This document shows, piece by piece, positions 16,277-41,760 of a stretch of 64,000 nt of DNA. The notes beneath the pieces are model-generated. The model saw only the letters and a list, made by a program, of their open reading frames with translations. It was not told the DNA's origin and made no database searches. Every line of letters starts with the position of its first letter. Position 1 is the stretch's first letter. Origin of the DNA: Planctomycetota bacterium (GTDB lineage: Bacteria > Planctomycetota > MHYJ01 > WSZJ01). The stretch lies in assembly GCA_038060895.1 (NCBI GenBank), contig JBBTCT010000017.1:1-64000 (forward strand), written 5' to 3'. A program made the position numbers and the translations under genes.

Positions 16277-17398
16277 ATGACCGCCCCCTCCAAAGGCCTT
16301 GAAGGCATCGTCGCCGGCTCTTCACAGATCTGTTACATCGACGGCGACGCGGGCGTTCTGCGCTACTACGGATACCCCATCCAGGAACTGGCGGAGCATT
16401 CGAACTTCGAGGAAACGGTCTACCTGCTCTGGCACGGAAAGCTGCCGAAGAAGAACGAGCTGGAGGGATTCCGCGGGGAAGTCGCGAACGCGGGCGGCAT
16501 TCCGGAGCCGATCGTGCGGCTGATCCTGTCGTTCCCGAAGGACGCCAACACGATGTCGTGCCTGCGGACGGCGGTTTCGGCGCTGTCGCTGTACGACCGG
16601 CAGAGCGAAGACATGTCGGACGCCGCGAACCGGCGCAAGGCGGTGCGGATCCAGCACCAGATCAACGCGATCGTTCCTGCGATCGACCGGGCGCGCAAAG
16701 GGCTGCCGATCCTGCAGCCGCGGACGGACCTGTCCCTGGCAGAGAATTTCCTCTACATGCTGCGCGGCGAGACGCCGAAAGCGGACGAAGCGCGCGCCAT
16801 GGACATGTGCTTCATCCTCCACGCCGATCACGAGCTCAACGCCTCGACCTTTGCCTGCCGCGTCATCGGCGCAACGCTGTCCGACATGCACGGCGCGGTG
16901 ACGGGCGCCATCGCAGCGCTCAAGGGACCGCTTCACGGCGGCGCAAACACCGACGTCATGAAGATGCTGCTCAGCGTGGGCGACGTGTCGAACGCTGAAG
17001 CCTGGATCAAGGACGCTCTCGCGAAGAAACAACGCATCATGGGATTCGGCCACCGCGTGTACAAGACGCTCGACCCGCGGGCGGGCGTGCTGAAAAAGAT
17101 GAGCGAGAAGCTGTGCAAGTCGACGGGAGTGACGAAGTGGTTCGACATCTCGAGCAGGATCCAGGAGTTCGTGAAGAAAGAGAAGGAGCTGAACGCGAAC
17201 GTGGACTTCTACAGCGCGAGCGTCTACTACTCCCTCGGGATCCCGCTCGACGTCAACACCCCGATTTTCGCGATCAGCCGCACCTCGGGCTGGCTGGCCC
17301 ACCTGCTGGAACAATACGCCGACAACCGGCTGATCAGGCCCCGCGCCGAGTACGTCGGGCCTCCTGAGCGGCACTGGGAACCCTTTGAGAAACGGTAG
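16277..17398 (+). CDS. Citrate synthase (or 2-methylcitrate synthase)
   Basis: HADHELNAST, GPLHGGAN, GFGHRVYK, NVDFYS. Confidence 0.93.
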   Translation: MTAPSKGLEGIVAGSSQICYIDGDAGVLRYYGYPIQELAEHSNFEETVYLLWHGKLPKKNELEGFRGEVANAGGIPEPIVRLILSFPKDANTMSCLRTAVSALSLYDRQSEDMSDAANRRKAVRIQHQINAIVPAIDRARKGLPILQPRTDLSLAENFLYMLRGETPKADEARAMDMCFILHADHELNASTFACRVIGATLSDMHGAVTGAIAALKGPLHGGANTDVMKMLLSVGDVSNAEAWIKDALAKKQRIMGFGHRVYKTLDPRAGVLKKMSEKLCKSTGVTKWFDISSRIQEFVKKEKELNANVDFYSASVYYSLGIPLDVNTPIFAISRTSGWLAHLLEQYADNRLIRPRAEYVGPPERHWEPFEKR

Positions 17399-25391: not shown

Positions 25392-26024
25392 TCAACGCAG
25401 ACTTTTCGGAATCCCGATGTCGGCAACTACGACCTCGCCGGTAAACGCGCGGCCGTTTTCAAATCCGGATTTCGTGGCGTGCATCGTCACCGTCTTCGTC
25501 GCGCGAACCGCCGTCCCGAGCGGTTGCCCGGTGTCGCCATCCAGGCCGCTCGGGATGTCGACGGCGAGGACCGGCGCGCCGCACGCGTTGACGGCGTCGA
25601 TCACGGCCGGCCAGGGCTCGCGCAGCGGTCCCGACAACCCGGTGCCGAACAGCGCGTCGACGACGAGGACCGCGCCGGAGAGCGCGGAACGGAACTCCTC
25701 GATCCACGCCGCCCCGATCGAGCGGACCTCGGCGCCGGAGAAACGAAGCGCCCGGTAATTGGCGAGGGCGTCTCCCTCAAGACGCGCTGGCTCGAGAGCC
25801 ACGACGCGCACCGGTGCGCCGCCGCTGTCCAGTAGCCGCGCCGCCACGAAACCATCGCCACCATTGTTCCCACGGCCGCAGACAACCACGATCAGGCCGG
25901 AGGCAGCCATGCGAAGCGCCTCTTCTGCCACCGCGCGGCCGGCATTTTCCATCAGCACCGCCGCGGGAATTCCGGTTTCTTCGATCGCGCGTTTTTCGAG
26001 GGCGCGCATTTCGGCGCAGGTCAT
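25392..26024 (-). CDS. nnrE: NAD(P)H-hydrate epimerase (YjeF N-terminal, stand-alone)
   Basis: LMENAG, GRGNNGGDG, VDALFGTG, DIPSG. Confidence 0.9.
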   Translation of the reverse strand: MTCAEMRALEKRAIEETGIPAAVLMENAGRAVAEEALRMAASGLIVVVCGRGNNGGDGFVAARLLDSGGAPVRVVALEPARLEGDALANYRALRFSGAEVRSIGAAWIEEFRSALSGAVLVVDALFGTGLSGPLREPWPAVIDAVNACGAPVLAVDIPSGLDGDTGQPLGTAVRATKTVTMHATKSGFENGRAFTGEVVVADIGIPKSLR

Positions 26025-29000
26025 CGCCCTCCCCCTTTCGACTCCCGCAGGCGCGCGAGCGCCAGCTTCGGTTCCTCGGCGCGGCGAGGGAGATTGGCGG
26101 CCTCGGCAATCCGGATGGCCTCCTCGAGCAGCGATTCCGCCACGGCCCTGTTTCCCGCGGCGGTCTCGAGTTCCGCGGCGCCCATGAGCGCGGAAATCCC
26201 GTTCAGCTTGTGGGTCGCCCGGCGTACAAGCGCGAGGCCCTCCTCCAGCGCCGCACGGGCCCCCGCCTCGTCCCCCAGCTGCTTCCTCGCCCTCGCGAGC
26301 CGGACAAGCGCGACGCCCTCTTCGCCGCGAAGCCCCAGCTCGTCCGAAATTCCAAGCGCCTCCTCAAGCCGCGACCGTGCCGACGCCGCGTCGCCGGCGT
26401 GAAGGTCCAGCTCCGCGATCTGGACGAGCAGGCCCAGGATGAGCCGCTTGCCTCCAAGGCTCCGCTGGATTTCCAGCGCTTCCTCCGCCATTCGCCGCGA
26501 CGCGGCGCGGTCTCCTTCTTCCGCGGCGACGGAAGCGAGGTTCGACAGAAGAGTCGCTCCTGTGCCCCTGTCCCCGGTCAACCGGGTGATCTCGAGTCCT
26601 TCCGTCCAGCACCGCTTCGCCCCCGCGGCGTCCCCTGCCTCTGAGTAGACGTTGCCCTCGGCGGTCAGCGCGCTGGCGAGGATCGGCCTCAGCCCCAGCT
26701 CGCGCGCGAGCGCAACCGCCTCCTGCACCGAGGCGAGCGCTTCTTCGCGCCGGCCGAGCTGGCGCAGGATCGTGCAGCGCTGCGACAGGGTGCTCGCGAG
26801 ATTGATCCGGTCTCCCGATTCGCGAAGGATCGAAGTGGACTCCTCGACGGAGCGAATCGCTTCCTCGAATCGCCCGCGATTGCGGAGCAGGAGGCCGCGC
26901 CCGCGCAAGGCGATGGCAAGAAGACCCTGCGAGCCGGCCGCGCGCATGGCGGCGATGGCCTCGTCGTAGTCGCGCTCCGCGCTGTCGTACTGTCCGCGAC
27001 GCTGGCGGATCAGGCCTCGCTGCACCAGCGTTCTTGCGCGATACAACGTCGCTGCCGGATCGCTCTCTCCGTCGTGGACGAGGCTGTCCGCGGCCGACGC
27101 GGCTTCGTCGAGCCGGCTGGAGGCGGCGAGAGCGCACACATGGAAATACCTGGCTTCTATCCTTGAGGCGGCGTCCACGCCCTCCAGGGCCCGCTCCGCG
27201 GCGGCGATGAACTCGGTGGGCCCGAGGGTTCGCTGCATGACGCACGCAACGTCGATGAGCGCGCGCGACCGCCGCGCCGGCGTCATCCCCGGCGAAGCTT
27301 CTACGATGGCGAGAAGCGCCGTGACGTCTGCTGGAATACCTGCGACCGCCGCGGCGCGGATCTCGACGCAGGCCGCGGCTCCTCCCGCTCCCAGCCGCCG
27401 AGCCTCACCCGCCGCGGCGGCCGCTTCGTCCCACACCTTCTCCGCCGCCGCTTCGTTCGCGAATTCAAGCCAGAGCCTTGCCGCGTCATCCGCCCGCCCT
27501 TCGAGCTCTCTCTGCTGCGCCGCAAGCCCTTTCGCACGCCGCCCGGCGCCGCCTGCCCGCGCCTCGAGCGCGACGGCCGCCGCGCCGTGAAGCCTCGCAC
27601 GGTCCCGCTTCGTCAGAAGCGAGTACGCCGCCTCCTGGATGAGGGATTGCCGGAACGAGTACTCCGAATCACCTGCAAGCGCAGAGGCGGCGCGCTCTTC
27701 GACGACTTCTTCGCGTGAAGCGGTGACCAGGTCGGGCCCGGTGTCGCGGCCGGCGACCTCGGCGAGCACTCCGCGCCAGAACGACTTGCCGAAGACGGAC
27801 GCGGTTTTCATGGCGTCACGTGCATCGCCGTTGAGGGCATCGAGGCGGGCGACCAGGAGTCCCTGGAGTCCTTCGGGCAGCCGCTCCGGCCGTCGCCCGA
27901 GGGTCGCAGGCATGCCTTCGAGCAGTCCTTCGTCGTCGAGCCAGCGGGCGAGCTGCGCGACGTAGAACGGCGAGCCGCCGGTGCGTTCGAGGAGGAATTG
28001 CGCCAGCCCCGGCTGGACCGGGCGCCCGATCGCGTCGGCGGCGAGTTCCACGACGGCTTCGGTGCGAAGTGGCCCGAGTTCGAGGCGTCGAAATCCTGCC
28101 GGGGTCGCGAAGCCGTGGCGGGCGGTCAGCACGATAGTCACGCGCGCGCGGTTGAGAAGCGGGGCCAGTGCCGAGAGAAGCGCGAGGAGTGCCGGATCGG
28201 CATTTTCCATGTCGTCGAGCACGAGGGCCAGCGGGGCGCGGCCGCGGAGCCAGCCCGCCCAGGCGGCGCGCGTCAAGTCGGCGAGATGCGCGGGGTCCAG
28301 CTGGTCGAGCCGGGCGCCGCCGGGATCAAGCCCCACGGAACGTGCGATGAGGTGAGCGCCGGTCGAGCGTCCGGCTTCGCTCGTGCCGGCGGAGTACCCC
28401 GCAGCGAGCCAGTCGATCGCCGGCACGCCGCCGGCCGCCCCGCGAATGAGGTCGGCGAGCGCTCCCAGGGGGACTTTCCCGCCCTCCGGCGCCCTCCCGG
28501 AGGCCGTCCACGGCGAGGGCGATGCCATCCGCAGCCGCGCCAGGAATTCCGCGGCCAGCCGCGATTTGCCGATGCCCGCTTCGCCCTCGATCACTACCAG
28601 CGCCCCGCCCGCGCGGTTCATCTCGAGCAGGCGCGCCAGCTCCTCTTCACGGCCGAAAAACCCGGCAGTTCGCGATTCCACGACGCCCGCTTTCTCGCCG
28701 ACCGCCTCGAACGACGCCAGGCTCTCCGTCCGCCCCTTCACGTGGACCGCTTCCATCGCCCGGTACTCGATCCGCCGAAACGTCGATCGCTCAACGCCGC
28801 GCGTCACGAGCACGCTTCCGGGTCGCGCCAGAGCCTCCATCCGCTGGGCCACGTTGACCGCGTCTCCCATGGCCGTCGCCCGGTCCCCCGCGACACTTCC
28901 CCACAGCGCTTCCCCCGTGTTGATGCCGATCCGAAGCGCGAGGTCCAGCTTCCGTTCGCGGTTGAATTCCGCGACTTCGCGCTGCATCTCGAGCCCGGAC

Positions 29001-29245
29001 TTCACGGCTCGAAGCGGGTCGTCCTCGTGCGCTGTCGGCGCGCCGAAGACCGCCATCACGGCGTCGCCGATGAACTTGTCCACGGTCCCGCCGTGTTTTT
29101 CGATCGCCGTGCGCAATCGACGGAAGAGCCCGTCGATGATGTCCGTCACGTCCTCCGGGTCCATATGCTCGGAGAGGCTCGTGAACCCCGAAAGGTCGGA
29201 GAAGACGACGGTCAGAATGCGGCGCTCAGTGGCGGGAGCGGACAT
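26021..29245 (-). CDS. Class III nucleotide cyclase + STAND/AAA ATPase + TPR protein
   Basis: FSDLSGFT, KFIGDAVMA, GDAVNVAQR; Walker A GEAGIGKS; Walker B LVLDD; C-terminal TPRs. Confidence 0.9.
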   Translation of the reverse strand: MSAPATERRILTVVFSDLSGFTSLSEHMDPEDVTDIIDGLFRRLRTAIEKHGGTVDKFIGDAVMAVFGAPTAHEDDPLRAVKSGLEMQREVAEFNRERKLDLALRIGINTGEALWGSVAGDRATAMGDAVNVAQRMEALARPGSVLVTRGVERSTFRRIEYRAMEAVHVKGRTESLASFEAVGEKAGVVESRTAGFFGREEELARLLEMNRAGGALVVIEGEAGIGKSRLAAEFLARLRMASPSPWTASGRAPEGGKVPLGALADLIRGAAGGVPAIDWLAAGYSAGTSEAGRSTGAHLIARSVGLDPGGARLDQLDPAHLADLTRAAWAGWLRGRAPLALVLDDMENADPALLALLSALAPLLNRARVTIVLTARHGFATPAGFRRLELGPLRTEAVVELAADAIGRPVQPGLAQFLLERTGGSPFYVAQLARWLDDEGLLEGMPATLGRRPERLPEGLQGLLVARLDALNGDARDAMKTASVFGKSFWRGVLAEVAGRDTGPDLVTASREEVVEERAASALAGDSEYSFRQSLIQEAAYSLLTKRDRARLHGAAAVALEARAGGAGRRAKGLAAQQRELEGRADDAARLWLEFANEAAAEKVWDEAAAAAGEARRLGAGGAAACVEIRAAAVAGIPADVTALLAIVEASPGMTPARRSRALIDVACVMQRTLGPTEFIAAAERALEGVDAASRIEARYFHVCALAASSRLDEAASAADSLVHDGESDPAATLYRARTLVQRGLIRQRRGQYDSAERDYDEAIAAMRAAGSQGLLAIALRGRGLLLRNRGRFEEAIRSVEESTSILRESGDRINLASTLSQRCTILRQLGRREEALASVQEAVALARELGLRPILASALTAEGNVYSEAGDAAGAKRCWTEGLEITRLTGDRGTGATLLSNLASVAAEEGDRAASRRMAEEALEIQRSLGGKRLILGLLVQIAELDLHAGDAASARSRLEEALGISDELGLRGEEGVALVRLARARKQLGDEAGARAALEEGLALVRRATHKLNGISALMGAAELETAAGNRAVAESLLEEAIRIAEAANLPRRAEEPKLALARLRESKGGGR

Positions 29246-29300: not shown

Positions 29301-32300
29301 TCACTCCCCCCGCGCCGCCGCCTTCTCTTTCCACATTCTTCTTGGATCCGGTCCGCCGTCGAGGTCCCGGCGCTTCCAGACAAGCCCGCCCGGCCCGGCG
29401 ATTTCCTCCAGGCGCGCGACGACTTCCGGCTGCGGCGCGAAGCGAAACTGCGATCCGGTGGAAAGCGTGACGCGGGACCCGTCCTCGGCGTGAATCTGGA
29501 AATAAAGCTCGCAGGACCCGGGGTAGGTGGTGACCGTCGTCCGCAGTCTCTCCAGCATGGCCTCGCTCGAATCCTTGAGCAGGATCAGCACTCTCTGCGA
29601 ACACACCTCGCGGACCTTGTCCACCGGGATGACCTCGCCGACCCGCAGGCTCGGCTCTTCCCGGTAGCGATCGACGCGTCCGCGAAGGAAGACGATCTTG
29701 TCCTCGGCGAGAAGTTCGCTGAAGCGCTCGAGTTCCTTCGGAAAGACGGTGGCCTCGATCGACCCGCTGAAGTCGCGCAGTTTGAGGCGCGCGATTTTCT
29801 TCCCGGCGTTCTGTCCGGCCTTGACGATCATCGAGGCGCACGACGTCAGGATTCCGCCGATCTGGACCTCGGCGCCCTCATCGAGCCCGCCGGCCGCGGA
29901 CGCCGTGCAGGTCGAGTAGGCCTTCAGGATGCTCGACCAGCGCGTGATCGGGTCGCTCGATACGTAGAACCCGAGGGTCTCCTTTTCGCCCTTCAGCAGG
30001 TCGTCCTCGTTCCACTCCGGAATCTCCGCCAGTTTCGGTTCCTGCGTCGGGCCGGCGCCGCCGAAGAGACCTCCCTGCCCTAGCTTCTTGTCGGACTGGT
30101 GCTGCTGGCCGACCCTGAGGGCGCGTTCGGCCACCTCGGAAAGCTGCGACCGCTTCGCGCCGAGCGACCGGAAAGCGCCGGCCTTGATGAGCGTCTCGAG
30201 CGAACCGCGGTCGAGGGTTTTCGGGTCCACGTTCTCGCAGAACTGGAAGATCCCCTTGAAGCGGCCGCCGACTTTCAGGCGAGCTGCGAGGGCCGAGTCC
30301 ACGAGTTTGTCCCCGATCCCCTTGATGGCGCCGAGGCCGAAGTGGATGCGGCCGCCGTGGACGGAGAACTCGAGTTCGCCTTCATTGACGTCGGGCGGAT
30401 CGACGGGGATGCCGAGGGCCTGGCACTCGTCGCGGAACTCGACAATCTTGTCGGTGTTTCCACGGTCGCAGGTCATCAGCGCAGCCATCATCTCGACCGG
30501 ATAATTCGCCTTGAGCCAGGCGGTCTGGTAGCTGACGAGGGCGTAAGCGGCGGAGTGCGACTTGTTGAAGCCGTATCCCGCGAAGAACACGATCTGTTCC
30601 CAGATGGCCTTGGCGACGTCTTCCTTGATTCCGTTCTTGCGGCAGCCGCTGATGAATCCTTCTTCGAACTTCTCCATCAGCTCTTTCTTCTTCTTGCCCA
30701 TCGCCTTTCGCAGCGAGTCGGCGTCAGGCAGCGAGAACCCTGCGACGCGGTTCGCGATCCGCATGACCTGCTCCTGGTACAGGATGACGCCGTACGTGTC
30801 GCGGAGAATCGGCTCGAGCGACGCGTGCAGGTAGGTCGGCTTCTCGCCGTGCTTGCACTTCACGTACTGCTGGTCCATGCCGCTCTGAAGCGGGCCGGGG
30901 CGGAAAAGCGCGAGGAGGGCGACGATGTCGTCGAAATTGTCGGGGCGGAGGCGGATGACGAGCTCGGTCATCCCGCTGGATTCGAGCTGGAAAATACCGC
31001 GGGTCTGGCCCTTCTGGAGGAGGTCGTACGTTTTCGGGTCCGCGAGCGGGATCGTCGCGAGGTCGACCTTTGTGCCGCAGGACTTCTCGACGAGCTTCAC
31101 GCACTTGTCGATGACGGTCAGCGTCTGCAGCCCGAGGAAGTCCATCTTGAGCAGGCCGAGCTCGCCCACGGCGTCCATCGAGAACATCGTCGACTCGATG
31201 TCTCCCATGCGGAACACCGGCACGCGCTCCGTGATCGGCTTGTCGCTGATGACGACCCCGGCCGCGTGAGTCGAGGCGTGGCGCGTCGCGCCCTCGAGCT
31301 TCATCGCAATGTCCACCAGCTCCTTCACGCGCGGGTCGGACTCGTACTCCTTCTTGAACTCCGGTTCCATCTCCAGCGCACGGGAGAGCTTCACGTGCAC
31401 GGGATTCGGCGCCTGCGGGTCGCGCGTCGGGATCCGCTTCGCTATCCGGTCTACTTCCACCAGCGGCATCGCGAGCGCACGCCCGACGTCGCGAAGCGCA
31501 GCCTTTGCCTGGAGCGTTCCGAACGTGATGATCTGGCACACGTGGTCCGCCCCGTACTTTCCGCGAACGTACTCCAGGACCTTCTCGCGCCCTTCCTGGC
31601 AGATGTCCACGTCGATATCCGGCAGCTCGTTGCGGCCCGGATTGAGAAAGCGCTCGAAGAGCAGGTCGTACTTCAGCGGGTCCAGTTCCGTGATCCCGAG
31701 CGAGTACGCCACGAGCGAACCGGCCGCGGAACCGCGACCCGGGCCGACGGGAATCCCGTGCGTCTTCGCGTAGTGGATGAAATCCCAGACGATCAGGAAG
31801 TAGCCGGCAAAACCCATCTTGTCGATCGTCTCGATCTCGAAATCCAGCCGCTGCCGGATCGTTTCGGTGACGACCTGGAAACGGCGCTTCAACCCCTCCT
31901 CGCACAGGCGCCGCATGTACTGGGTCGGCGTCGAGCCGTCCGGGATCGGGAACTTCGGCAGGTGCCGCGCCTTGAAGTCGAGCTCGATCCCGCAGCGCGA
32001 AGCGATGTCGGCCGTGACGTCCACCGCGCCGGGGAACTCCCTGAAAATCTCCCGCATCTCCGCTTCGGTCCGGAGGTAGAGCTGGTCCGTGGACATTTTC
32101 ATACGCCCGGGGTCGTTCACGGTCCGGTTCGTCCCGATGCAGATCAGCACGTCCTGCGCCTGCGCGTCCTCGCGCTTCACGTAGTGCACGTCGTTCGTCG
32201 CCACCAGCGGAACGCCGAGCTGGCCTGAGAATTTCGCGACCGACGAAGTGATCTGCCGCTCGAAATCCATCCCGTGGTCCTGGATCTCGAGGAAGAAACT

Positions 32301-32804
32301 GTCCTTCCCGAAGATGTCCCGGTATTCGCCGCAGGTCTTCAGCGCCATGTCTTCCTGGCCAGCCCGGATCTGGACGCTCGACTCCGAATTCGGGCAACCG
32401 CTGAACCCGATCAGCCCCTCGGAATGCGCGGCAAGCGTTTCCTTGTCGATCCGCGGCTTGTAATAGAAACCTTTCTGGTACGCGAGGCTCGCCAGCTTGA
32501 TCAGGTTGTGCCACCCCTTCTGGTTCCGACACAGGATCGTCAGGTGGTACGACGCCTTCCCGTTCCGCTGCTCGCGCTCCGTCATTTTCCCGGGCGCTAT
32601 GTACGCTTCGTACCCCAGGATCGGCCTGACCCCGTGCGCCGCCGCCTTCTTGTAGAACTCGACGGCCCCGAAGAGGTTTCCGTGGTCCGTCAAAGCGAGC
32701 GAGGTCTGCCCCGCCTTCTTCGCCGCCAGCAGCATGTCGTCGATCCGGGCGAGGCCGTCGAGAAGCGAGTACGACGAATGGCAGTGGAGGTGGGCGAAGG
32801 CCAT
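29301..32804 (-). CDS. dnaE: DNA polymerase III alpha subunit
   Basis: PHP HLHCHSSYSLLDG, GPGRGSAAGS, PDIDVD, LKMDFLGL, YGFNKSH; no intein. Confidence 0.97.
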   Translation of the reverse strand: MAFAHLHCHSSYSLLDGLARIDDMLLAAKKAGQTSLALTDHGNLFGAVEFYKKAAAHGVRPILGYEAYIAPGKMTEREQRNGKASYHLTILCRNQKGWHNLIKLASLAYQKGFYYKPRIDKETLAAHSEGLIGFSGCPNSESSVQIRAGQEDMALKTCGEYRDIFGKDSFFLEIQDHGMDFERQITSSVAKFSGQLGVPLVATNDVHYVKREDAQAQDVLICIGTNRTVNDPGRMKMSTDQLYLRTEAEMREIFREFPGAVDVTADIASRCGIELDFKARHLPKFPIPDGSTPTQYMRRLCEEGLKRRFQVVTETIRQRLDFEIETIDKMGFAGYFLIVWDFIHYAKTHGIPVGPGRGSAAGSLVAYSLGITELDPLKYDLLFERFLNPGRNELPDIDVDICQEGREKVLEYVRGKYGADHVCQIITFGTLQAKAALRDVGRALAMPLVEVDRIAKRIPTRDPQAPNPVHVKLSRALEMEPEFKKEYESDPRVKELVDIAMKLEGATRHASTHAAGVVISDKPITERVPVFRMGDIESTMFSMDAVGELGLLKMDFLGLQTLTVIDKCVKLVEKSCGTKVDLATIPLADPKTYDLLQKGQTRGIFQLESSGMTELVIRLRPDNFDDIVALLALFRPGPLQSGMDQQYVKCKHGEKPTYLHASLEPILRDTYGVILYQEQVMRIANRVAGFSLPDADSLRKAMGKKKKELMEKFEEGFISGCRKNGIKEDVAKAIWEQIVFFAGYGFNKSHSAAYALVSYQTAWLKANYPVEMMAALMTCDRGNTDKIVEFRDECQALGIPVDPPDVNEGELEFSVHGGRIHFGLGAIKGIGDKLVDSALAARLKVGGRFKGIFQFCENVDPKTLDRGSLETLIKAGAFRSLGAKRSQLSEVAERALRVGQQHQSDKKLGQGGLFGGAGPTQEPKLAEIPEWNEDDLLKGEKETLGFYVSSDPITRWSSILKAYSTCTASAAGGLDEGAEVQIGGILTSCASMIVKAGQNAGKKIARLKLRDFSGSIEATVFPKELERFSELLAEDKIVFLRGRVDRYREEPSLRVGEVIPVDKVREVCSQRVLILLKDSSEAMLERLRTTVTTYPGSCELYFQIHAEDGSRVTLSTGSQFRFAPQPEVVARLEEIAGPGGLVWKRRDLDGGPDPRRMWKEKAAARGE

Positions 32805-32875
32805 GGGGGGACTCGTTTTAGGCGTGTTTTAGGGCGAAGTCAGGCGAATGTTCGTGCGCGCGAGGAAGTCCCGGC

Positions 32876-32903
32876 ATTCTAGCGGTCGCGGGGTGGGGGT
32901 CAA
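32876..32903 (-). promoter_or_regulatory. Putative sigma70 promoter of dnaE
   Basis: TTGACC (32903-32898), 16 nt, TAGAAT (32881-32876) in the RT-dnaE gap. Confidence 0.6.
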
Positions 32904-32940
32904 AGAAGCGGGAGAATTGTCGCGATGCGTCAATACGCCG

Positions 32941-33999
32941 CTACCAGGCCACGCGGCGAAAATCAGCGAGCAGCTTTTCCCCCTTCGCCTTGTCGATCGC
33001 CCTCACTGCTTCAATGCGCCCCCTCACGCGCGAAGAGAATCCTTTTTCCTGGTTCCGGTTCGCCACCTGCGCTCCCTTCGTCCGCGCCTCGTGCAGCAGG
33101 GCGCGCAACGCCCTGGCTTCCTCGCGCGAGGGCGACAGTTTCGCGTTCACGGTGATTCCCGTCACGGTCTGCCGGCTCATGCGGCGCAGGAACCGGGTTT
33201 TCTCGCGAGCGATGGAGAATCCTTCGTCCCGGAGAATCCTCCGGATGACGCGGAGCGGGTCCTGCACGCCGAGGTTGGCCGCCTCGAATGAAAAGGTCAG
33301 GTCGTCGGCGTACCGCGAATAGCGCGCGCTGTACTTCCCCGCCAGGCCCGTGAGCCGCGCGTCCAGCCGCCGGCAGACGATGTTCGTCAGCGCCGGGGAG
33401 GTCGGCGCCCCCTGCGGCAGGCGCCCCTTGTGGCAGCAGAGCCTCCAGAGAAGCCGGGCGACTTCCTCCGGGTATCCCAGCGCCCGGAATTGCCCCGCCA
33501 CCCGGTTTCGCTTCACCTGCCAGAAGAAGTCCCGCAGGTCGAGTTTCACGACCAGCTTTCGAGCCACGTGCGGCATCGCGTTCGTACGTGGCGATCGTCC
33601 CTTGCAGAATCCGTGGGCCGCCGCTGAAGGCGCGACCTTCGAGAGAATCTCCCGGTGGATCACGCGCTGCACGGCACGCAGCTGTTTTTTGGGCGCTTCA
33701 ATCGTCCGATGTCCCCGCGCCTTGGGAATTTTCCACGTCGCGTAATGTCTCCCGCGTTCGCGGGCGAGCCAGGCGAGTTTTTCGGGGGCAAGCCTGAGCA
33801 AGTCAGCCAGCGCCGCAGCGGTTGAAATCGGCGGCAGCCCGGGCGCAAGCGGGCGAGGCGCGGCCTTCGGCGAGAACTTTCGCCGCGGCGCCGGCGATCC
33901 CGCGGGGAGCCCATGAGGAACCGCCGCCGGGCGGGCAGCACCCGCGGGCTGCCCTTTCACCGGATTGAACAGGTCCCTCAAGAAATCAAAGATTCCCAC
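32941..33999 (-). CDS. Retron-type reverse transcriptase
   Basis: AHGF, retron region X NAMPH (NAxxH), KLDLRDFF, LPQGAPTSP, YADD, region Y VTG; GTG start after AAGGGGG. Confidence 0.93.
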   Translation of the reverse strand: MGIFDFLRDLFNPVKGQPAGAARPAAVPHGLPAGSPAPRRKFSPKAAPRPLAPGLPPISTAAALADLLRLAPEKLAWLARERGRHYATWKIPKARGHRTIEAPKKQLRAVQRVIHREILSKVAPSAAAHGFCKGRSPRTNAMPHVARKLVVKLDLRDFFWQVKRNRVAGQFRALGYPEEVARLLWRLCCHKGRLPQGAPTSPALTNIVCRRLDARLTGLAGKYSARYSRYADDLTFSFEAANLGVQDPLRVIRRILRDEGFSIAREKTRFLRRMSRQTVTGITVNAKLSPSREEARALRALLHEARTKGAQVANRNQEKGFSSRVRGRIEAVRAIDKAKGEKLLADFRRVAW

Positions 34000-34029
34000 C
34001 GCACCCCCTTCCCCTGCGTTGCCCTTTTC

Positions 34030-34150
34030 CTTCCTTTTCGCGTCGTGACCTCGATTTCGTGCGGTTGGAGGGGACGGGGCGGAGGCGCGAAGCGCCGGCG
34101 GTCCGTCCCCGTAAACCGCACGAAATCGAGGTCACGATGCGAAAAGGAAG
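34030..34150. repeat. 121-nt hairpin between the retron ncRNA and the RT start
   Basis: 37-nt arms 34030-34066 and 34114-34150 (36/37), inner GGGGACGG/CCGTCCCC, apex GGCGC-GAA-GCGCC. Confidence 0.92.
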
Positions 34151-34348
34151 CGGCGGCGGCTTTACTGTCTCCCGGCGAAAAATGCGGCTCCGGCTTGCCG
34201 GAGCCCATTTATCGCGAACGCAGCCAACTCGGGGGACGAGCGCAGCGACCCCCCGTGTTGGCGTCCGTGATGCTGCCAGAATGCGCACGCGGCGGAACGC
34301 CGCGCCCTTCCTTGCGGAAGTTCGCTAAAGCTTGCGCCGCCGCTTCCC
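34146..34348 (-). ncRNA. Retron msr-msd ncRNA
   Basis: a2 34347-34326 pairs with a1 34164-34146 (13 bp + 6 bp, 3-nt bulge); branch G at 34325 in CUUUAGCGA; msr hairpins CUUCC-GCAA-GGAAG and GCGGCG-UUC-CGCCGC; msd hairpins 34175-34215 and 34223-34262. Confidence 0.8.
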
Positions 34349-34354
34349 GGAAGG

Positions 34355-34384
34355 ACGCTACCTTCAGCGGCGCGCGGCGGGCAA
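34355..34384 (-). promoter_or_regulatory. Putative sigma70 promoter of the retron
   Basis: TTGCCC (34384-34379), 18 nt, TAGCGT (34360-34355); predicted TSS about 34348, matching the 5' end of a2. Confidence 0.5.
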
Positions 34385-34493
34385 ACAAAACGAGGCGGCG
34401 GACCTGATCCGCGAGAATCGAGGGGACCCCGGCGGCGGAACTTACACTGGTCCCCGGGCGTCAGAGACCGGTCCTCCCAGGAGACCCGCACCA

Positions 34494-35873
34494 ATGCTCG
34501 CCGTCGTCCCCGCTTTCTTCGCCCCGCTGCAGTCGCTTCTCTCGTTCCTGCCGCAGATCGCCATCGCGCTTGCGGCGGCCGCGACGGCGATCTTCCGCCC
34601 CCAGGTGTACCGCTGGGCGTGGCACCAGGCGCAGGCACACCGGCTTGCGACGGCACTCGTCGCCGTGGCGGCAATCGGCGGTTCGACCGCAGCCGTGGCC
34701 TGGGGACGGTATCGCAACCCGCCGCCGCCTCCACCGACCGAAGAGCAGAAGCGTGAGGGCTGGTGGACTTTCCGCGGCAATGAGGCGCGCACCGGCGGTG
34801 ACGGCTCCGCGGTCCCGGGACCGGTCACGTCGATCTGGAAATACCGGGAATGGTCGGTTGACCGCAAACCCTTCGCCTCTTCGCCCGCCGTCTGGGCAGG
34901 GCGTGTCTACGTCGGGTGTGACAACAGCGTTCTCTATTGCTTCGACGCGGAGAAGGGCGGCGAATATCCGCTCTGGGTCTTCGCTGCGCGCTACAGCGTC
35001 TTCTCCTCTCCGTCGATTGCGAACGGGAAGGTGTACTTCGGCGAGGGGCTTCATCACAACACCGATGCCCGGGTCTACTGCGCGGACGCCGTGACCGGCC
35101 GGAAGATCTGGGACTTCAAGACCTCGAGCCACGTCGAGGACGCCCCCACGATTGCCGACGGCCGCTGCTGGTTCGGCGCCGGCGACGACGGGCTCTGGTG
35201 CCTCGACGCGGAGACGGGCGCGCCGATCTGGCAGGCGAAGGGGATGCACCTCGATTGCTCGCCGCTCCTTGTCAACGGCCTGCTCGTGGTCGGCGCCGGG
35301 TACGGAGAAACCGGGGTCGCCGCATTCGACGCGAAGGTCGGGACGCGGAAGTGGTTCACGAAACTCCCGGCGTCCTGCTGGGGACCGCCCGCGCTCGGGC
35401 CGCGGGGCGCCATTGTCGGGATCGGCAACGGAAACTTTCGAGACATCATCCCGGACGCGAAGGCTGAAATCCTCTGCCTCTCGCTCGACGGCGGCGGCAT
35501 CGCATGGCGCCTTCCCTTGAAGGGCGCCGTGCTCGCCGCCGCGCTCGTCTCGGGAGGCCGTGTCTACCTGGGCGACCAGAGCGGCGCCTTCTCGTGCGTG
35601 GACGCGAATACGGGCAAGCTCATCTGGGAACAGACTTGCGGCTACAGCGTGCACTCCAGTGCGGCCGTCGCCGGCGACTGCGTCGTCTACGGATGCGTCG
35701 GCGGCCATGTCCACGCCCGTCGCGCGTCCGACGGCGTTGAAACGTGGACCTACGACGCCCAGAACGACGGCTTCAACTACGACTGCTCCATCTCGTCGAG
35801 CCCCGCGGTCGTGAACGGACGCGTCTACATCGGATGCGATAATTTCTTCTTCTACTGCCTCGGGAAGAAATAG
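34494..35873 (+). CDS. Membrane-anchored PQQ-repeat beta-propeller (BamB-like) protein
   Basis: WWTFRGNEARTG, repeated SSP...GRVYVG...LYCFDA..G..W; hydrophobic N-terminus. Confidence 0.87.
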   Translation: MLAVVPAFFAPLQSLLSFLPQIAIALAAAATAIFRPQVYRWAWHQAQAHRLATALVAVAAIGGSTAAVAWGRYRNPPPPPPTEEQKREGWWTFRGNEARTGGDGSAVPGPVTSIWKYREWSVDRKPFASSPAVWAGRVYVGCDNSVLYCFDAEKGGEYPLWVFAARYSVFSSPSIANGKVYFGEGLHHNTDARVYCADAVTGRKIWDFKTSSHVEDAPTIADGRCWFGAGDDGLWCLDAETGAPIWQAKGMHLDCSPLLVNGLLVVGAGYGETGVAAFDAKVGTRKWFTKLPASCWGPPALGPRGAIVGIGNGNFRDIIPDAKAEILCLSLDGGGIAWRLPLKGAVLAAALVSGGRVYLGDQSGAFSCVDANTGKLIWEQTCGYSVHSSAAVAGDCVVYGCVGGHVHARRASDGVETWTYDAQNDGFNYDCSISSSPAVVNGRVYIGCDNFFFYCLGKK

Positions 35874-35892
35874 CGTTCCCGGCCCTCAACTC

Positions 35893-37878
35893 GTGCGCGC
35901 GATCCCCCTGGGCCTGCTGACTCCCGACGACGCCCGCTTCGCCGGCGGCAAAGCGCGCGGCCTGGACGCGCTCCTTAAGGCCGGCCTGTCCGTTCCTCGC
36001 GGTTGGGCCGTTCTCGAACCCGAATCCGACCCCGCACCCCTGCTCGAAGCCTGGCGCGCGGCCGGCTCGCCGCCGGTCGCCGTGCGCTCTTCCGCCGCCA
36101 TGGAGGACGGCGCCGCGGCGAGCTACGCCGGACAATTCCTGAGCCTGTTGGATGTGCGCAGCGAGCAGGTCCTGCGCGAAGCGCTCACCCGTGTCGCCGC
36201 TTCCCAGAAACAGCCCACCGCCTACGGCGGAAGCGCGGGGGTGGCGGCGGTGGTGGTGCAGGAGATGATCGAACCGGAGATGGCGGGAGTCGCGTTCGGC
36301 CGCGACCCCGCGACCGGCGAGGGCGTGGTAATCGAAGCGGTGCTCGGCCGCGGGGACGCGCTGGTCTCGGGGGCGGCGACGCCCGACCGGTTGCGCGTCG
36401 CCGGTGAAAAGCGCGAAGGCTCGACGCCGCTAGTCCGCGAGATGGAGCGCGAACTGCTGGGCCGGCTCGCCGGGCTGGAGAAGCTGTTCGGCGTCCCGCA
36501 GGACGTCGAGTGGGCGGTCCTGAAAGGCCGCCTCTGGCTGCTTCAGTCGCGTCCCGTGACGCCGACCGCGGCGATCCTGCTGTCCGACCTGCGGCGTTCT
36601 TCTCGCGAAGACACCTGCTGGTCGGCGGCGTATTCGCTGGCGGAGACCTGCCCGGCACCGACGCCGATGACCTGGGAATTCCTGAAGCGGATGATGTCGT
36701 GGGAGGGCGGCCTCGGGCGGGCGTACCGGCGGTTCGGTTTCTTCTTCCGGGAGGACGTGAAGCGGGACGGGTTCCTGCGCCTCTGCGGCGGGCGGCTCTA
36801 CGCGGATCTCGGGCTCGAAGCGGCCTCGTACTTCGGCGAATGGCCGCTGGCACACGATCTTGACGCGTTGCGTCAAAACCCCGCCCTGGCGGCGCGTCCG
36901 GAGCTGAAGCCGGACTGGAAACGCGCCTCCGCGGCCTTCTGGCTCAAGCTCCCCTGGTACTTCTGGAAACTCTCCTCCGCGCAGCGCCGCCTCACCGCGG
37001 CCCGGGCTTCCTTTCCCGCTGAATTCGCCGATTGGGAGCGGGCCGTCCGAACCCGCACCTCCCTCCGCGCCTCATCGCCCGCGCAGTTCCGCGAACGCTT
37101 TCGCAGGTGCACTGAGGACTCCGCCGAAATGGCGATCACCGCCTCCATACTCGCCTCGGCAGAGTGGGAGAGGACACCGGCGCCGAAGCGCGGCGACCTG
37201 CGAGCGTGGATGCCGTCGGATCTCGCCCACCGCGGTCCTGCGGAGATGGAGCTGGCCGAGCCGCGATGGCGCGAACGGCCGGAGGAACTGGAGCGCTTCC
37301 GGCGGGAAGCGCCCGCAGGACGCGACGCCGGCGGAATCTACGCGCTTCGCGAGCGCGGCAAAGACGCCCTGCTGCTCGAGACGGAAACGCTGCGGCTCGA
37401 CCTGCTGGAATTCGGCCGGGCCTCGGGCCTGGGAACCGATGTGTTTTTTCTTACGCCCGAGGAACTCGACCGCCCCGACCCCGCCCTTGCGGCCCGCCGC
37501 CGCCGCGAACGGGAATCCCTTCTCCGGATCCCGCTTCCCACGCTCGTGTTCTCCCGCGGCGCGACCGCGGCCCCGACTTCCGGCGCCGGGCTCTCCCCGG
37601 GAACGGCCGAGGGCGTTGCGTGGCTTCCAGCATCTCCGGCCGAGACGCCCCCCGCGGAGGCGGTCCTGGTCGTCGCTTCCCTCGATCCCTCCTGGACGCT
37701 GCTCTTCTCCCGCGTCCGGGCCGTCGTCAGCGGGCGCGGCGGCCTTCTCTCCCACGGCGCAATCGTCGCCCGGGAGCTGGGCGTGCCCTGCGTCCTGTGG
37801 CCCGAAGCGCTGGAACGCCTGGCCGCGGGAACGAGAGTGAAAGTCGATGGTGACCGCGGGACGGTGCATGTCACTTGA
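35893..37878 (+). CDS. PEP-synthase-like phosphotransferase (ATP-grasp + central domain + phospho-His swivel; RPH/PigC-like order)
   Basis: GGKARGL, VAVRSSA..ED...SYAGQF, VVVQEMI, PQDVEWA, LLQSRPVT, SHGAIVARE. Confidence 0.85.
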   Translation: MRAIPLGLLTPDDARFAGGKARGLDALLKAGLSVPRGWAVLEPESDPAPLLEAWRAAGSPPVAVRSSAAMEDGAAASYAGQFLSLLDVRSEQVLREALTRVAASQKQPTAYGGSAGVAAVVVQEMIEPEMAGVAFGRDPATGEGVVIEAVLGRGDALVSGAATPDRLRVAGEKREGSTPLVREMERELLGRLAGLEKLFGVPQDVEWAVLKGRLWLLQSRPVTPTAAILLSDLRRSSREDTCWSAAYSLAETCPAPTPMTWEFLKRMMSWEGGLGRAYRRFGFFFREDVKRDGFLRLCGGRLYADLGLEAASYFGEWPLAHDLDALRQNPALAARPELKPDWKRASAAFWLKLPWYFWKLSSAQRRLTAARASFPAEFADWERAVRTRTSLRASSPAQFRERFRRCTEDSAEMAITASILASAEWERTPAPKRGDLRAWMPSDLAHRGPAEMELAEPRWRERPEELERFRREAPAGRDAGGIYALRERGKDALLLETETLRLDLLEFGRASGLGTDVFFLTPEELDRPDPALAARRRRERESLLRIPLPTLVFSRGATAAPTSGAGLSPGTAEGVAWLPASPAETPPAEAVLVVASLDPSWTLLFSRVRAVVSGRGGLLSHGAIVARELGVPCVLWPEALERLAAGTRVKVDGDRGTVHVT

Positions 37879-37967: not shown

Positions 37968-39140
37968 ATGCGCATGGCCTTCACCGCTCTTCTCGTCGCA
38001 ACCCTGCCCTGGCTCGCCGCCGGGTGTTCCAACGGCGGGGAAAACCCTGAAGACAAGCCCGGGGGCGGGACCATCACCTCGGAGAAAATCTTCCGCGAGG
38101 AACAGAAACGCGTCCTGCTGCTGCTGGAGACGTTTGAAAAGCACGACATGGTAGCCATGGATGAAGCCGTGGCCGAGCTGGAGGAAATGGCAAGCGCCGA
38201 GAAGCATCTCATCAGCCCGGAAATTCAGGAGCAGCTCAAGAAGTACCGGGACCCCCGCCAGACGAACAACGCCGTGGATCGGCTTCGCTGGATTTCGAAA
38301 TTCGCGCGGTCCATGCTCCTGCTCGAGGGATGGAACAAAGAGAAGTGGCAGCACTGCCACGACATGATGGTCCGGCTCGGCCCGGAAGCGCTCGTGCGCT
38401 TCACCGGCGTCCTGATCGTGAAATTCAACGAGAACCAGGAGTGGTGCGGTCTGATGCTGATGGACCTCTGCGTCAGCCACAAGGGGATCATTCACGACGC
38501 GATCCTGGAGGCGCTGGCTCTTAAGGGGAGCGACCAGCCGGGCCCGTTCCAGATGCGCGTCCTTGACGACGTCTCCCGTCGCGGTCTCGTGGCGGTGCTT
38601 CTCGGCTCCCCGGACCCCCCGGTCTCGAAAATCCGCGAATCCGCGACGAATATTCTGGTGCCGAAAACGACGCGCCGGGCCTGGGCCGCGAAGCTGCCGG
38701 AATTGAAGGAAGGCGGAGTCTGCCCCCCCTGGGTATCCGAACTCCTCTCGGTACAGGTACAGGCCGACCCGGAGTGGGAGGTCCGCGCCACGGCGGCCGA
38801 CAGCCTGGGACGGACCGGCGACGCCGAGCACGCCGTCCCCGTCCTCACGAAAGCACTCAAGGACAAGGACACCTGGGTCCGAAGAAATACATGTATTTCC
38901 CTGGGTCTGTACACGTCCCGGGCGAAGCCGGCCATCGGCCCCATGCTGGAGATGCTCAAGGCCCTGGAGACGGAGAAAATGGAGTTTAAAAAGGACGACG
39001 GCTCCACCGAGCTCCGCCCCCTGGGCAATCCGCGTCGCGAAATCGAGAACGTCGCACTCATGTCATTGCAGTTGATCAGCGGGAAGCGCTTCAACGAACT
39101 TCATTCGTTTTACGCATGGTGGGACGAAAGAGACAAATGA
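37968..39140 (+). CDS. HEAT-repeat lipoprotein
   Basis: Lipobox LAAGC; DPEWEVRATAADSLG, DKDTWVRRNTCISLG. Confidence 0.75.
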   Translation: MRMAFTALLVATLPWLAAGCSNGGENPEDKPGGGTITSEKIFREEQKRVLLLLETFEKHDMVAMDEAVAELEEMASAEKHLISPEIQEQLKKYRDPRQTNNAVDRLRWISKFARSMLLLEGWNKEKWQHCHDMMVRLGPEALVRFTGVLIVKFNENQEWCGLMLMDLCVSHKGIIHDAILEALALKGSDQPGPFQMRVLDDVSRRGLVAVLLGSPDPPVSKIRESATNILVPKTTRRAWAAKLPELKEGGVCPPWVSELLSVQVQADPEWEVRATAADSLGRTGDAEHAVPVLTKALKDKDTWVRRNTCISLGLYTSRAKPAIGPMLEMLKALETEKMEFKKDDGSTELRPLGNPRREIENVALMSLQLISGKRFNELHSFYAWWDERDK

Positions 39141-40260: not shown

Positions 40261-41760
40261 ATGCCCATCTCTACTTCGTGCTCCTGCGGACGCAAGCTCA
40301 ACCTGAAGGACGAGCTTGCGGGGAAGACGGTGAAGTGTCCGCAGTGCGGGAATGGTGTCCGTGTTCCCGACGGGAAATCGACCGCGACCGCGGTGGCGAC
40401 ACCGCCGCCACGTTCGGCGCCGGCCGATTCGCGCATCATGGAAAAGCCGGGCGGCAAGAAGAAGGACGACGCCGGCCCGAAGGTCATGATGGCGAACTTC
40501 AAGTCGCTCGAAGACTTCGACGACGCCGGAAACGTCAAAAAGAAGAAGAAGGAATTCACAAAGGAAGAGGAACAGGTCTCCGAGGCCGCCGGTGGCACGA
40601 CGGGCGGCGAGATGGCGAAGATAGCCGCGGAGGCGCTGAGCGCCGAGAAGGAAAAGCCGAAACACCGGTGCCCCGGTTGCGGACGCGGCGTGAAGCCCGA
40701 CGACGTGATCTGCACGAAGTGCGGCACGAACATCAAGACGGGGCGGCGGATCGGCGAGTCGGCGTTCACGGTTACGCCCCGCAAGGTAATGATCTTCTTC
40801 GGCGTCGCGGGGATTTGCGCGATCGGGGCGTTTTTCACGTTCACGCACGAACCCGAGCAGACAAAAATCGACAAAAACAAGAAGAAGGACGAGGAGCAGA
40901 GGGGCGAGATCGCGGACACCATCGCGAAGATGACGGAGATTGTGAACGACGCGGATCCCGACCACGCGCGCGCCCTTCCACACGTCGCCAACGTCGGCGC
41001 CGATGCGCTGCCTGGCCTGATTAACAGCCTGAAGTCCGGCGGCCCGGCCACTCGCCGTAAAGCGGTCAAGCTGATGGAAATCCTCGCGTTCAACGGATAC
41101 CGGAGCGAAGAATCGTGCTACGCGCTCGGCGCACTGGCCCGCGAATCGGACTCGACGCTGCGCGATTGGGCAGCCGAGGCGCTTCAGTGGAGCGGCTACG
41201 ACCTGGCGCAGGGGCAGGCGTACTGGGCGGCGGGCGAAAAGGACCCCGCCAAGATGACGGACGTCGCCAAGGCGTACGCACTCCCCTTCAACATGTGCCG
41301 GCAGATCCTGTCCGACGCCGGCGTAGCGGTGCAGAAGAACGAGAAGCTGGGGAAGATCGACCACTCGGACAGTCATCCGGCGCGAACGCCCGTCCTTCCG
41401 ATCGCTGCGTACAAACTGAAGAAGTTCTACGATGCGGAAACGGGGCAGTCGCTGAAAGTGACCCGTCTGATCCAGGCGGTTCGTGCGGGACGGAAGGAGC
41501 TGATCGTCAACCTCATCTACTACCTTGAGCCGGAACCGTGCACGAAACTCGGATTTCCGCCGGCCCAGGTGGACCGGGACCGCGCTTACCGTTGCTTGCG
41601 GGATGTGACAGGGACGCCGCAGCGTCGCTTCGAAGATCGGTGGAAGTGGTGGAAGAGCGCCGGGGAAAAGATGTACCCCGCGCCGAAGGATCCGCCGGAG
41701 TGGGCGAGCGACACGCCGCCGGAGAAAGCGGCAGCTCCCGCCGTAGAGACCCCGAAGTAG
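40261..41760 (+). CDS. Zn-ribbon / TM / HEAT-like protein
   Basis: CSCG..CPQC, CPGC..CTKCG, one TM helix. Confidence 0.72.
   Translation: MPISTSCSCGRKLNLKDELAGKTVKCPQCGNGVRVPDGKSTATAVATPPPRSAPADSRIMEKPGGKKKDDAGPKVMMANFKSLEDFDDAGNVKKKKKEFTKEEEQVSEAAGGTTGGEMAKIAAEALSAEKEKPKHRCPGCGRGVKPDDVICTKCGTNIKTGRRIGESAFTVTPRKVMIFFGVAGICAIGAFFTFTHEPEQTKIDKNKKKDEEQRGEIADTIAKMTEIVNDADPDHARALPHVANVGADALPGLINSLKSGGPATRRKAVKLMEILAFNGYRSEESCYALGALARESDSTLRDWAAEALQWSGYDLAQGQAYWAAGEKDPAKMTDVAKAYALPFNMCRQILSDAGVAVQKNEKLGKIDHSDSHPARTPVLPIAAYKLKKFYDAETGQSLKVTRLIQAVRAGRKELIVNLIYYLEPEPCTKLGFPPAQVDRDRAYRCLRDVTGTPQRRFEDRWKWWKSAGEKMYPAPKDPPEWASDTPPEKAAAPAVETPK

Follow-up and report, generated by a model that had tools for sequence, protein, structure and literature searches.

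The window analysed here is a stretch of 64,000 nucleotides (nt) from a Planctomycetota bacterium (contig JBBTCT010000017.1, assembly GCA_038060895.1). Its minus strand carries a retron, a compact cassette of ~1.45 kb in which the gene of a structured non-coding RNA (ncRNA), the msr-msd RNA, directly precedes the gene of a reverse transcriptase (RT). The RT stop codon lies 137 nt from the start of dnaE on the same strand, and upstream of the retron runs a divergent gene for a beta-propeller protein of the pyrroloquinoline quinone (PQQ)/BamB type. An earlier examination of the letters alone (the sequence-only reading) had concluded that this arrangement leaves no room for an effector gene and that dnaE has a promoter of its own. 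Both points hold, the presumed promoter being a sigma-70-like site, TTGACC-16-TAGAAT, at 32903-32876(-), found by a consensus scan.

The product of the open reading frame (ORF) is a retron RT and scores as one rather than as an RT of the group II intron, diversity-generating retroelement (DGR), abortive infection (Abi) or defence-associated RT (DRT) type. The motifs TNAMPH, VTG and YADD, already picked out in the sequence-only reading, all fall within the ORF, and N140, A141, H144, Y230-A231-D232-D233 and V279-T280-G281 are unchanged across 24 aligned relatives. The protein matches RVT_1 of Pfam (6.8e-24) and 63 PADLOC families. The best 25 of these 63 are retron RT models, led by RT_other (8.6e-102, 339.8 bits), RT_XIII (4.5e-99, 330.6 bits) and RT_outgroup (3.7e-98, 327.4 bits); RT_Ec107-like gives 220.6 bits. 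The retron models of NCBIfam score 208-227 bits, each under its cut-off, and its non-retron RT models score low (group II intron RT 50.7 bits, Drt2 31 bits). A profile of 11 clade members finds the Ec86 RT as its best sequence match in the PDB (1.4e-61), followed by Ec67, Kva2, Ec78, Ec83 and Eco8. When the AlphaFold model (mean predicted local distance difference test score, pLDDT, 86.6) is compared with the PDB by Foldseek, retron RTs fill all 17 best matches listed, and the Ec86 RT is the closest solved fold (E 1.4e-22, template modelling (TM) score 0.63-0.70, ~31% identity). With retron RTs first in the PADLOC, PDB sequence and fold searches, the class proposed for the enzyme stands.

The RT is under purifying selection: the ratio of nonsynonymous to synonymous substitution rates (dN/dS) is 0.11-0.42 in all 10 pairs from five orthologs, values that are rough, with synonymous sites near saturation. 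Every one of the five orthologs starts with GTG or TTG, never ATG. The first 15 residues, MGxFDFLxDLFxPVK (33955-33999(-) in the window), show little or no variation among 11 clade members, and the Pro-rich linker after them varies in length among the five orthologs. AlphaFold predicts a helix at residues 3-11, a disordered Pro-rich linker at 12-44 and a confident RT core at ~50-352. On the reading adopted here, the hydrophobic residues of the modelled helix lie on one face, which would make it amphipathic. The Ec86 RT has neither helix nor linker, its alignment beginning at profile position 45. QLxLF is the clamp-binding pattern, and a beta-clamp-binding reading of the N-terminal motif was dropped for its misfit to that pattern.

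Upstream of the RT gene, 34347-34146(-) is the msr-msd RNA, closed by the repeats a1 and a2 (Table 1). The region 33990-34360(-), 371 nt long, folds with z = -8.55, and none of 100 shuffles does as well. An RNAalifold consensus of 69 pairs was derived from the orthologous upstream regions of five genomes of one genus (G000, which is the window genome, G002, G001, G003 and G006), and 93.4% of the cells are standard-paired on it. Both sides have changed in 22 of the 69 pairs, and none of 500 column shuffles reaches any of five measures; with the 3' partners shifted along by 1-3 columns, at most 9 pairs are changed on both sides. The sequence-only reading had proposed a1 and a2 and named covariation as the check on them. 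They are recovered as inverted repeats, map exactly onto the consensus structure and form a stem (helices 1 and 2) of 19 pairs, 5 of them changed on both sides, that is 95-100% paired in the five sequences. The two short msr hairpins of that reading are present as well. In the msd, both-side changes affect 9 of 13 pairs in helix 7 and 6 of 18 in helix 8; the msd of G003 forms one hairpin in place of two. The covariation test is limited to five sequences because a metagenome scan gave only RTs at most 45% identical. An Rfam scan of 32000-36000 found no matching family, returning chance-level matches to MIR1151 and Termite-flg, both on the palindrome described below, together with one sub-threshold match.

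The elements follow one another as in Retron-Eco1 (Ec86, type II-A), that is a2, an AGC with the priming G, msr hairpins, msd and a1, in agreement with the layout first suggested. The candidate priming G sits in CUUUAGCGA, with G34165 facing it across the stem as claimed, and CTTTAGCG around it (UUUAGCG in the RNA) is invariant in all five orthologs. The linker between msr and msd is probably where reverse transcription stops, and the predicted multicopy single-stranded DNA (msDNA) would be roughly 95-100 nt long. In the part of Simon et al. (2019, PMC6868368) drawn on here, retrons are defined by a conserved AGC that holds the priming G, by self-complementary ends and by the RT motifs NAXXH and VTG; the RNA and RT features of the window match this definition, with the AGC around G34325, a1/a2, NAMPH and VTG. 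Unlike the window retron, Ec86 works with an effector, according to the title of PDB entry 7v9x.

Table 1. Features of the retron cassette in the window, in order of transcription.
Feature	Position	Strand	Basis
Weak sigma-70-like promoter candidate	34384-34355	minus	-35 TTGCCC 34384-34379, 18-nt spacer, -10 TAGCGT 34360-34355; 7/12 matches
a2, 5' arm of closing stem	34347-34326	minus	Inverted repeats I5/I7; consensus structure
Candidate priming (branching) G	34325	minus	In AGC triplet directly 3' of a2
msr hairpin H1	34320-34307	minus	Helix 100% paired, one compensatory pair
msr hairpin H2	34305-34287	minus	Helix 100% paired, one compensatory pair; motif GGCGUUNCGCC
msr/msd linker GCAUUCUGGCAGCAUCACG	34263-34286	minus	Sequence kept in 5/5 orthologs
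msd hairpin H3	34262-34223	minus	Sequence varies, pairing kept
msd hairpin H4	34215-34175	minus	Sequence varies, pairing kept
G opposite G34325	34165	minus	Mapped consensus structure
a1, 3' arm of closing stem	34164-34146	minus	Inverted repeats; consensus structure
U-rich tract after a1	34145-34142	minus	T-rich tract 3' of a1 in 5/5 orthologs
Near-perfect palindrome, 59-nt arms, 3-nt centre	34030-34150	minus	Inverted repeat, 86% complementary; between a1 and RT start codon
Retron RT, 352 amino acids (aa), GTG start	32941-33999	minus	Motifs, profile and structure searches

The position of the promoter candidate before a2 is kept in the five orthologs, where TA...T and TTG/TTC boxes align, and transcription would start near 34348/34347. 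The longest ORF of the divergent PQQ propeller gene begins at a TTG at 34332 (34332-34500, plus strand) and overlaps a2, and its orthologs align from about residue 45. Translation probably begins instead near 34494, at the ATG of MLAVVPAFF; this would leave ~150 nt for two divergent promoters.

The sequence-only reading overlooked the palindrome, which the minimum-free-energy fold shows as a single long hairpin. In the alignment of the five orthologs it occurs in G000 and G002 only, not in G001, G003 or G006, and the G002 copy differs over one block of 13 nt in its stem, with the change mirrored in both arms. DNA contigs from an independent groundwater run (X2) stop at 34046 and restart at 34112, at the palindrome centre, and at this point the assembly of G002 contains an N and a duplicated segment; the palindrome evidently disturbs assembly. 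A dispersed repeat was considered and rejected, as the ncRNA region and the palindrome have no second copy in G000. Under the canonical scheme the palindrome is not msd, because it lies outside the template enclosed by a2 and a1. Cleavage of the RT transcript from the msr-msd is reported in the same excerpt of Simon et al. (PMC6868368), and for this reason the palindrome may serve, between the ncRNA and the RT mRNA, as a hairpin for processing or attenuation, a reasonable guess and no more.

Eight genomes of the genus, 81-94% complete, were compared. RT orthologs are found in four congeneric Planctomycetia genomes besides G000, at identities of 80% (G002), 70% (G001), 60% (G003) and 58% (G006), and G000 has a single retron-type RT. 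dnaE is found in all eight genomes, and the retron stands directly beside it in G000, G002 and G006. In G003 the two are 4.4 kb apart; in G001 they are on different contigs, and no RT lies upstream of dnaE there. The retron was not found in G005 and G007, whose sequence upstream of dnaE is without an RT, and G004 has only an RT of another lineage (41% identical), with its dnaE at a contig edge. The sequence-only reading had called this a core genomic position. That describes the three genomes with direct adjacency, but the retron is in only five of the eight and sits elsewhere in G001 and G003.

The flanks of the five loci differ, leaving the ncRNA and the RT as the sole shared elements. With the RT taken as plus, the order in G000 and G002 is PEP-utilising enzyme(-), PQQ propeller(-), ncRNA-RT, dnaE and cyclase-AAA-TPR. 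In G001 it is PQQ(-), RT and a PQQ paralogue(-). In G003 it is PQQ(-), an alpha-2-macroglobulin gene, RT, ~1.8 kb, a PQQ paralogue(-) and dnaE, and in G006 an alpha-2-macroglobulin gene, an unassigned ORF(-), RT and dnaE. The extra flanking ORFs at the other four loci belong to unrelated families or to no assigned family. The neighbourhood comparison called for earlier therefore yields no recurrent accessory gene in the five orthologous loci.

Pfam and PADLOC scans of 10 window neighbours returned no retron accessory family. Together with the two-component core of the five loci, this bears out the description of the retron as effector-less, and the absence of a linked effector at the window retron is supported. 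Among 80 related species-genome loci, two neighbour clusters recur upstream of the RT, at 37 and 27 of them. The loci with these clusters are type XIII retrons, because the recurring neighbours of one of them, L089, match SWIM_XIII (1.3e-179) and HEAT-ARM_XIII (4.3e-215). The genome-wide accessory search in G000 was confined to these type XIII families. SWIM_XIII (PDLC02972) and HEAT-ARM_XIII (PDLC02922) occur in one of the eight genus genomes, G001, at a separate locus on contig C305, and genome-wide searches did not find them in G000, G002, G003 or G006. The G001 locus (G001:C305:12105-17374; L109, L110) is a second, canonical type XIII retron, with HEAT-ARM_XIII, SWIM_XIII and RT, beside the stand-alone one in the same genome. 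Its RT matches in two pieces meeting at 16904-16906, an indication of a frameshift or of faulty assembly.

Several neighbours were considered as partners and rejected. Two HEAT-repeat genes 4-8 kb upstream (37968-39140 and 40261-41760) looked type XIII-like, but have no PADLOC match; they are in seven of the eight genomes, including the retron-less G004, G005 and G007, and not in the retron-bearing G006. The alpha-2-macroglobulin genes of G003 and G006 and the other flanking ORFs were set aside as effectors because none is common to the five loci. At 27 loci of a kind resembling RT clade 11 (see below), no neighbour cluster is common to more than 3-6 loci, and those are scattered or close kin. 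Another genome, G024, has an RT and RNA of the window kind at a locus between murB-like and LOG-like genes, and SWIM_XIII was not found in it. Two small Planctomycetota RT groups show a same-strand gene directly downstream of the RT: 224-289 aa and without a PADLOC match at L060:5330-6199, L073:9004-9729 and L106:6881-7555, and 304-318 aa at L038:6555-7511, L042:9017-9931 and L085:3364-4299. Either gene may be an accessory gene of its lineage that has escaped recognition.

In a 99-row tree the window RT falls in a 7-row clade with G002, G001, G003, G006, P0012 and P0013 (Shimodaira-Hasegawa-like approximate likelihood ratio test, SH-aLRT, 99). With weak support (SH-aLRT 80) this clade joins a 6-row metagenomic clade and a 30-row RT clade from Planctomycetaceae, Actinomycetota, Acidobacteriota and Pseudomonadota, in which no RT has a SWIM or HEAT gene nearby; the tree's other half is made up of the type XIII loci. 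A 193-row FastTree has a backbone without resolution between the window lineage, type XIII and the clade-11-like group. This larger tree left out loci with a tblastn match under 200 query residues or with a stop codon, and the short duplicates L008, L018, L021 and L022 were replaced by L193-L196. Both trees are without an outgroup from other retron types. L060, of the accessory-free clade, gives 444 bits on RT_other and 416 bits on RT_outgroup, and the type XIII locus L089 gives 539 bits on RT_XIII; the window RT is below such true members on all three models (340, 331 and 327 bits on RT_other, RT_XIII and RT_outgroup). Because its three scores are near equal, it is intermediate between type XIII and clade-11-like RTs. 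On sequence grounds it appears to be a separate, Planctomycetia-restricted lineage between the two. The accessory-free RT clade is taken here as the clade 11 of Mestre et al. from its taxa and PADLOC model names rather than from a reference tree.

The RNA gives a second line of placement. A covariance model, R1, was built from the five orthologous RNAs, with a short calibration that makes its E-values rough. Applied to 93 species-genome loci, it gives 18 matches at E <= 0.05. Eleven of the 18 immediately precede an RT that has SWIM or HEAT neighbours (L081, L066, L055, L101, L045, L035, L047, L011, L048, L049 and L108/L104), and two further matches, L054 and L033, fall on the type XIII side of the tree. 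RTs of the same class with no accessory gene account for three more (L022/L194, L008/L193 and L021/L195); SWIM_XIII is present in G012 and G053, but on contigs other than those of L195 and L194. None of the 27 clade-11-like loci is matched at E <= 0.05, and 80 metagenome loci give 9 matches at that threshold. The aligned matches have in common UUUAG following a2, the hairpin with GGCGUUNCGCC and, ahead of a1, GUAAA. Judged by this model, the window ncRNA resembles type XIII ncRNAs, an apparent tie of the stand-alone state to the type XIII RNA family that is new here, as are the separate RT lineage, the palindrome and the conserved N-terminal motif.

Cassettes of this general kind have been described. 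The portion of Mestre et al. (2020, PMC7736814) used here assigns stand-alone (msr-msd)-RT cassettes to one branch of RT clade 2 as well as to clade 11, and states that most genomes with orphan retrons are without homologs of known accessory proteins, which leaves room for trans effectors or another function. The suggestion that the window retron is an undescribed type is thereby not supported. Excerpts of a 2026 survey (PMC13712802) list clade11-A/B and Ec107-like groups without recurrent accessory modules and many low-confidence retron RTs in Planctomycetota. A limited literature search (effector-less or orphan retrons; type XIII, SWIM and Mx162 since 2021) found no functional study of such cassettes.

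Likeness runs in two directions. The window retron shares with the stand-alone and orphan cassettes excerpted from Mestre et al. (the clade 2 branch, e.g. Retron-Eco5/Ec107, and clade 11; PADLOC models RT_other, RT_outgroup and RT_Ec107-like) an ncRNA directly upstream of the RT and the lack of a recurrent accessory gene; like accessory-free retrons, it has RT_other as its best PADLOC model and groups with them weakly in the tree. Unlike the clade-11-like group, its RT forms a clade of its own (support 99) and its RNA model finds none of that group's loci. Type XIII (Mx162, Mx65, Ne144 and Sa163; RT clade 10) has a SWIM/DEDE winged-helix protein, HEAT/ARM (WGR) proteins and signs of vertical inheritance, as set out in the excerpted text (PMC7736814). 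The window retron has a similar ncRNA family, shares an N-terminal MGxF..L..LF motif with some type XIII RTs, and looks largely vertical in descent, which is suggested because RT divergence roughly tracks dnaE divergence. Unlike type XIII, it has no SWIM_XIII or HEAT-ARM_XIII gene beside it, its RT is shorter (352 aa against 460-630 aa) and its msd is shorter.

Characterised retrons are three-part anti-phage systems in which the msDNA restrains a toxic effector. The window locus is probably simpler: a functional minimal retron, consisting of an msr-msd ncRNA gene and an RT with nothing else in cis, is the interpretation favoured with fair assurance. In this model, a single minus-strand transcript would begin near 34348, a2 would pair with a1, and the two conserved msr hairpins would be bound by the RT. 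The enzyme would prime on the 2'-OH of G34325 and copy the msd from ~34166 towards the linker near 34265. Removal of the template by host RNase H would leave a branched msDNA on the RT. The best guess for its role is sensing or defence through an unlinked partner, and the amphipathic N-terminal helix of the RT may serve as a docking or targeting element.

Several observations weigh against this interpretation. RNAalifold pairs G34325-C-G with 34285-34283 in an invariant 3-bp helix; G34325 keeps its claimed place in the AGC after a2, opposite G34165, but for this reason its described 'unpaired' state is not supported. The consensus promoter scan finds nothing before a2, so the -35/-10 pair of the sequence-only reading stands as a weak pair of conserved position and a start at a2 as a deduction from it. 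Contigs from X10 and X16, the two RNA libraries among 16 public runs that contain part of the stretch, cover 33222-33404 in the RT gene, 34315-34651 in the a2-to-PQQ interval and 32674-33002 at the dnaE start, at depth 2-3, and cannot show transcription, as they give no strand and no ends and such libraries may carry DNA. The model does not account for the palindrome between a1 and the RT start. The window genome is 86.5% complete, and an unlinked known accessory gene could be unassembled. Three of the eight genus genomes are without the retron, which makes it dispensable.

A more specific account makes the RT-msDNA particle itself the functional unit, which the N-terminal helix would bring to the membrane or to an unlinked host protein. 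The lineage would be old and mostly vertical, the stand-alone state ancestral, and SWIM and HEAT proteins recruited later by type XIII. This is possible but rather unlikely. If true, it would offer a tractable model for msDNA action without an abortive-infection toxin.

An effector may instead lie in cis unrecognised, either as the amphipathic helix of the RT on a membrane or as the divergent PQQ beta-propeller, which is a doubtful proposal. The near-invariance of MGxFDFLxDLFxPVK in 11 clade members, and the predicted helix followed by a disordered linker, speak for the first form of it. A motif of the MGxF type opens the RT at 20 of 174 related loci, but 10 of these are among the 58 with SWIM or HEAT neighbours and 10 among the 116 without; the motif is therefore an RT feature and not a substitute for an effector. 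A PQQ-type gene within ~2 kb in G000, G002, G001 and G003 is what recommends the second form, against which stand the lack of a PADLOC match, the varying side and strand of the gene, and its absence beside the RT in G006. The upstream HEAT-repeat genes, present in retron-less G004, G005 and G007 and not found in retron-bearing G006, do not help this proposal either.

The cassette might also be a decaying relic, a former type XIII retron that has lost its SWIM and HEAT-ARM genes and whose RNA and RT no longer function. R1 matches upstream of type XIII RTs, an RT_XIII score near that of the best model (330.6 vs 339.8 bits) and the three retron-less genomes would fit such a history. The low dN/dS over five species (0.11-0.42, with synonymous sites near saturation), the intact catalytic and retron motifs and the 22 compensated pairs that keep the RNA helices paired all tell against decay, as does the lack of SWIM and HEAT genes in other lineages with similar RNA (L193, L194, L195, L172, L136 and L186). 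This history is accordingly improbable.

Very improbable is a domesticated housekeeping element whose RT-msDNA acts with DNA polymerase III: it would account for an RT that precedes dnaE by 137 nt on one strand, an order also seen in G002 and G006, and for the roughly parallel divergence of the two genes, but dnaE has its own promoter-like site, whose box and upstream 100 nt are kept in the RT-less loci of G001 and G005, a PQQ paralogue separates RT and dnaE in G003, the related stand-alone retron of G024 sits between murB-like and LOG-like genes, three of eight genomes do without the retron, and the N-terminal motif misfits the clamp-binding pattern.

The minimal retron proposed here leaves the retron category unchanged, adding a new lineage of a kind already described. 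Since Mestre et al. (2020) it has been asked what effector-less cassettes do, and the window locus is a clean object for addressing this, with a compact cassette, an RNA backed by covariation and an RT under purifying selection. The genus supplies five natural variants, two with the extra palindrome and one with a single-hairpin msd. The link between stand-alone and type XIII RNAs, the lineage-specific palindrome and the conserved N-terminal helix are worth following.

Two neighbouring genes deserve mention in their own right. Downstream of dnaE, 26021-29245(-) encodes a protein of 1074 aa that combines TPR repeats and an AAA_16 ATPase with an adenylate/guanylate cyclase domain, the last of which matches the Pycsar cyclase PycC of PADLOC (6.8e-25). 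The gene is kept next to dnaE in G002 and G003, and not in G006. The alpha-2-macroglobulin gene upstream of the retron contains an in-frame TGA in G003 (L025:8255-8320) and at the same place in G006 (L026). The halves around it match Pfam MG2/A2M_BRD/A2M and TED_complement/A2M_recep, and in both species the TGA (LGMPHG-TGA-FEQTSS) falls exactly at the usual position of the thioester cysteine. A tRNA-Sec is found in G000, G003 and G006 at 72-75 bits, and the TGA may encode selenocysteine at the thioester position.

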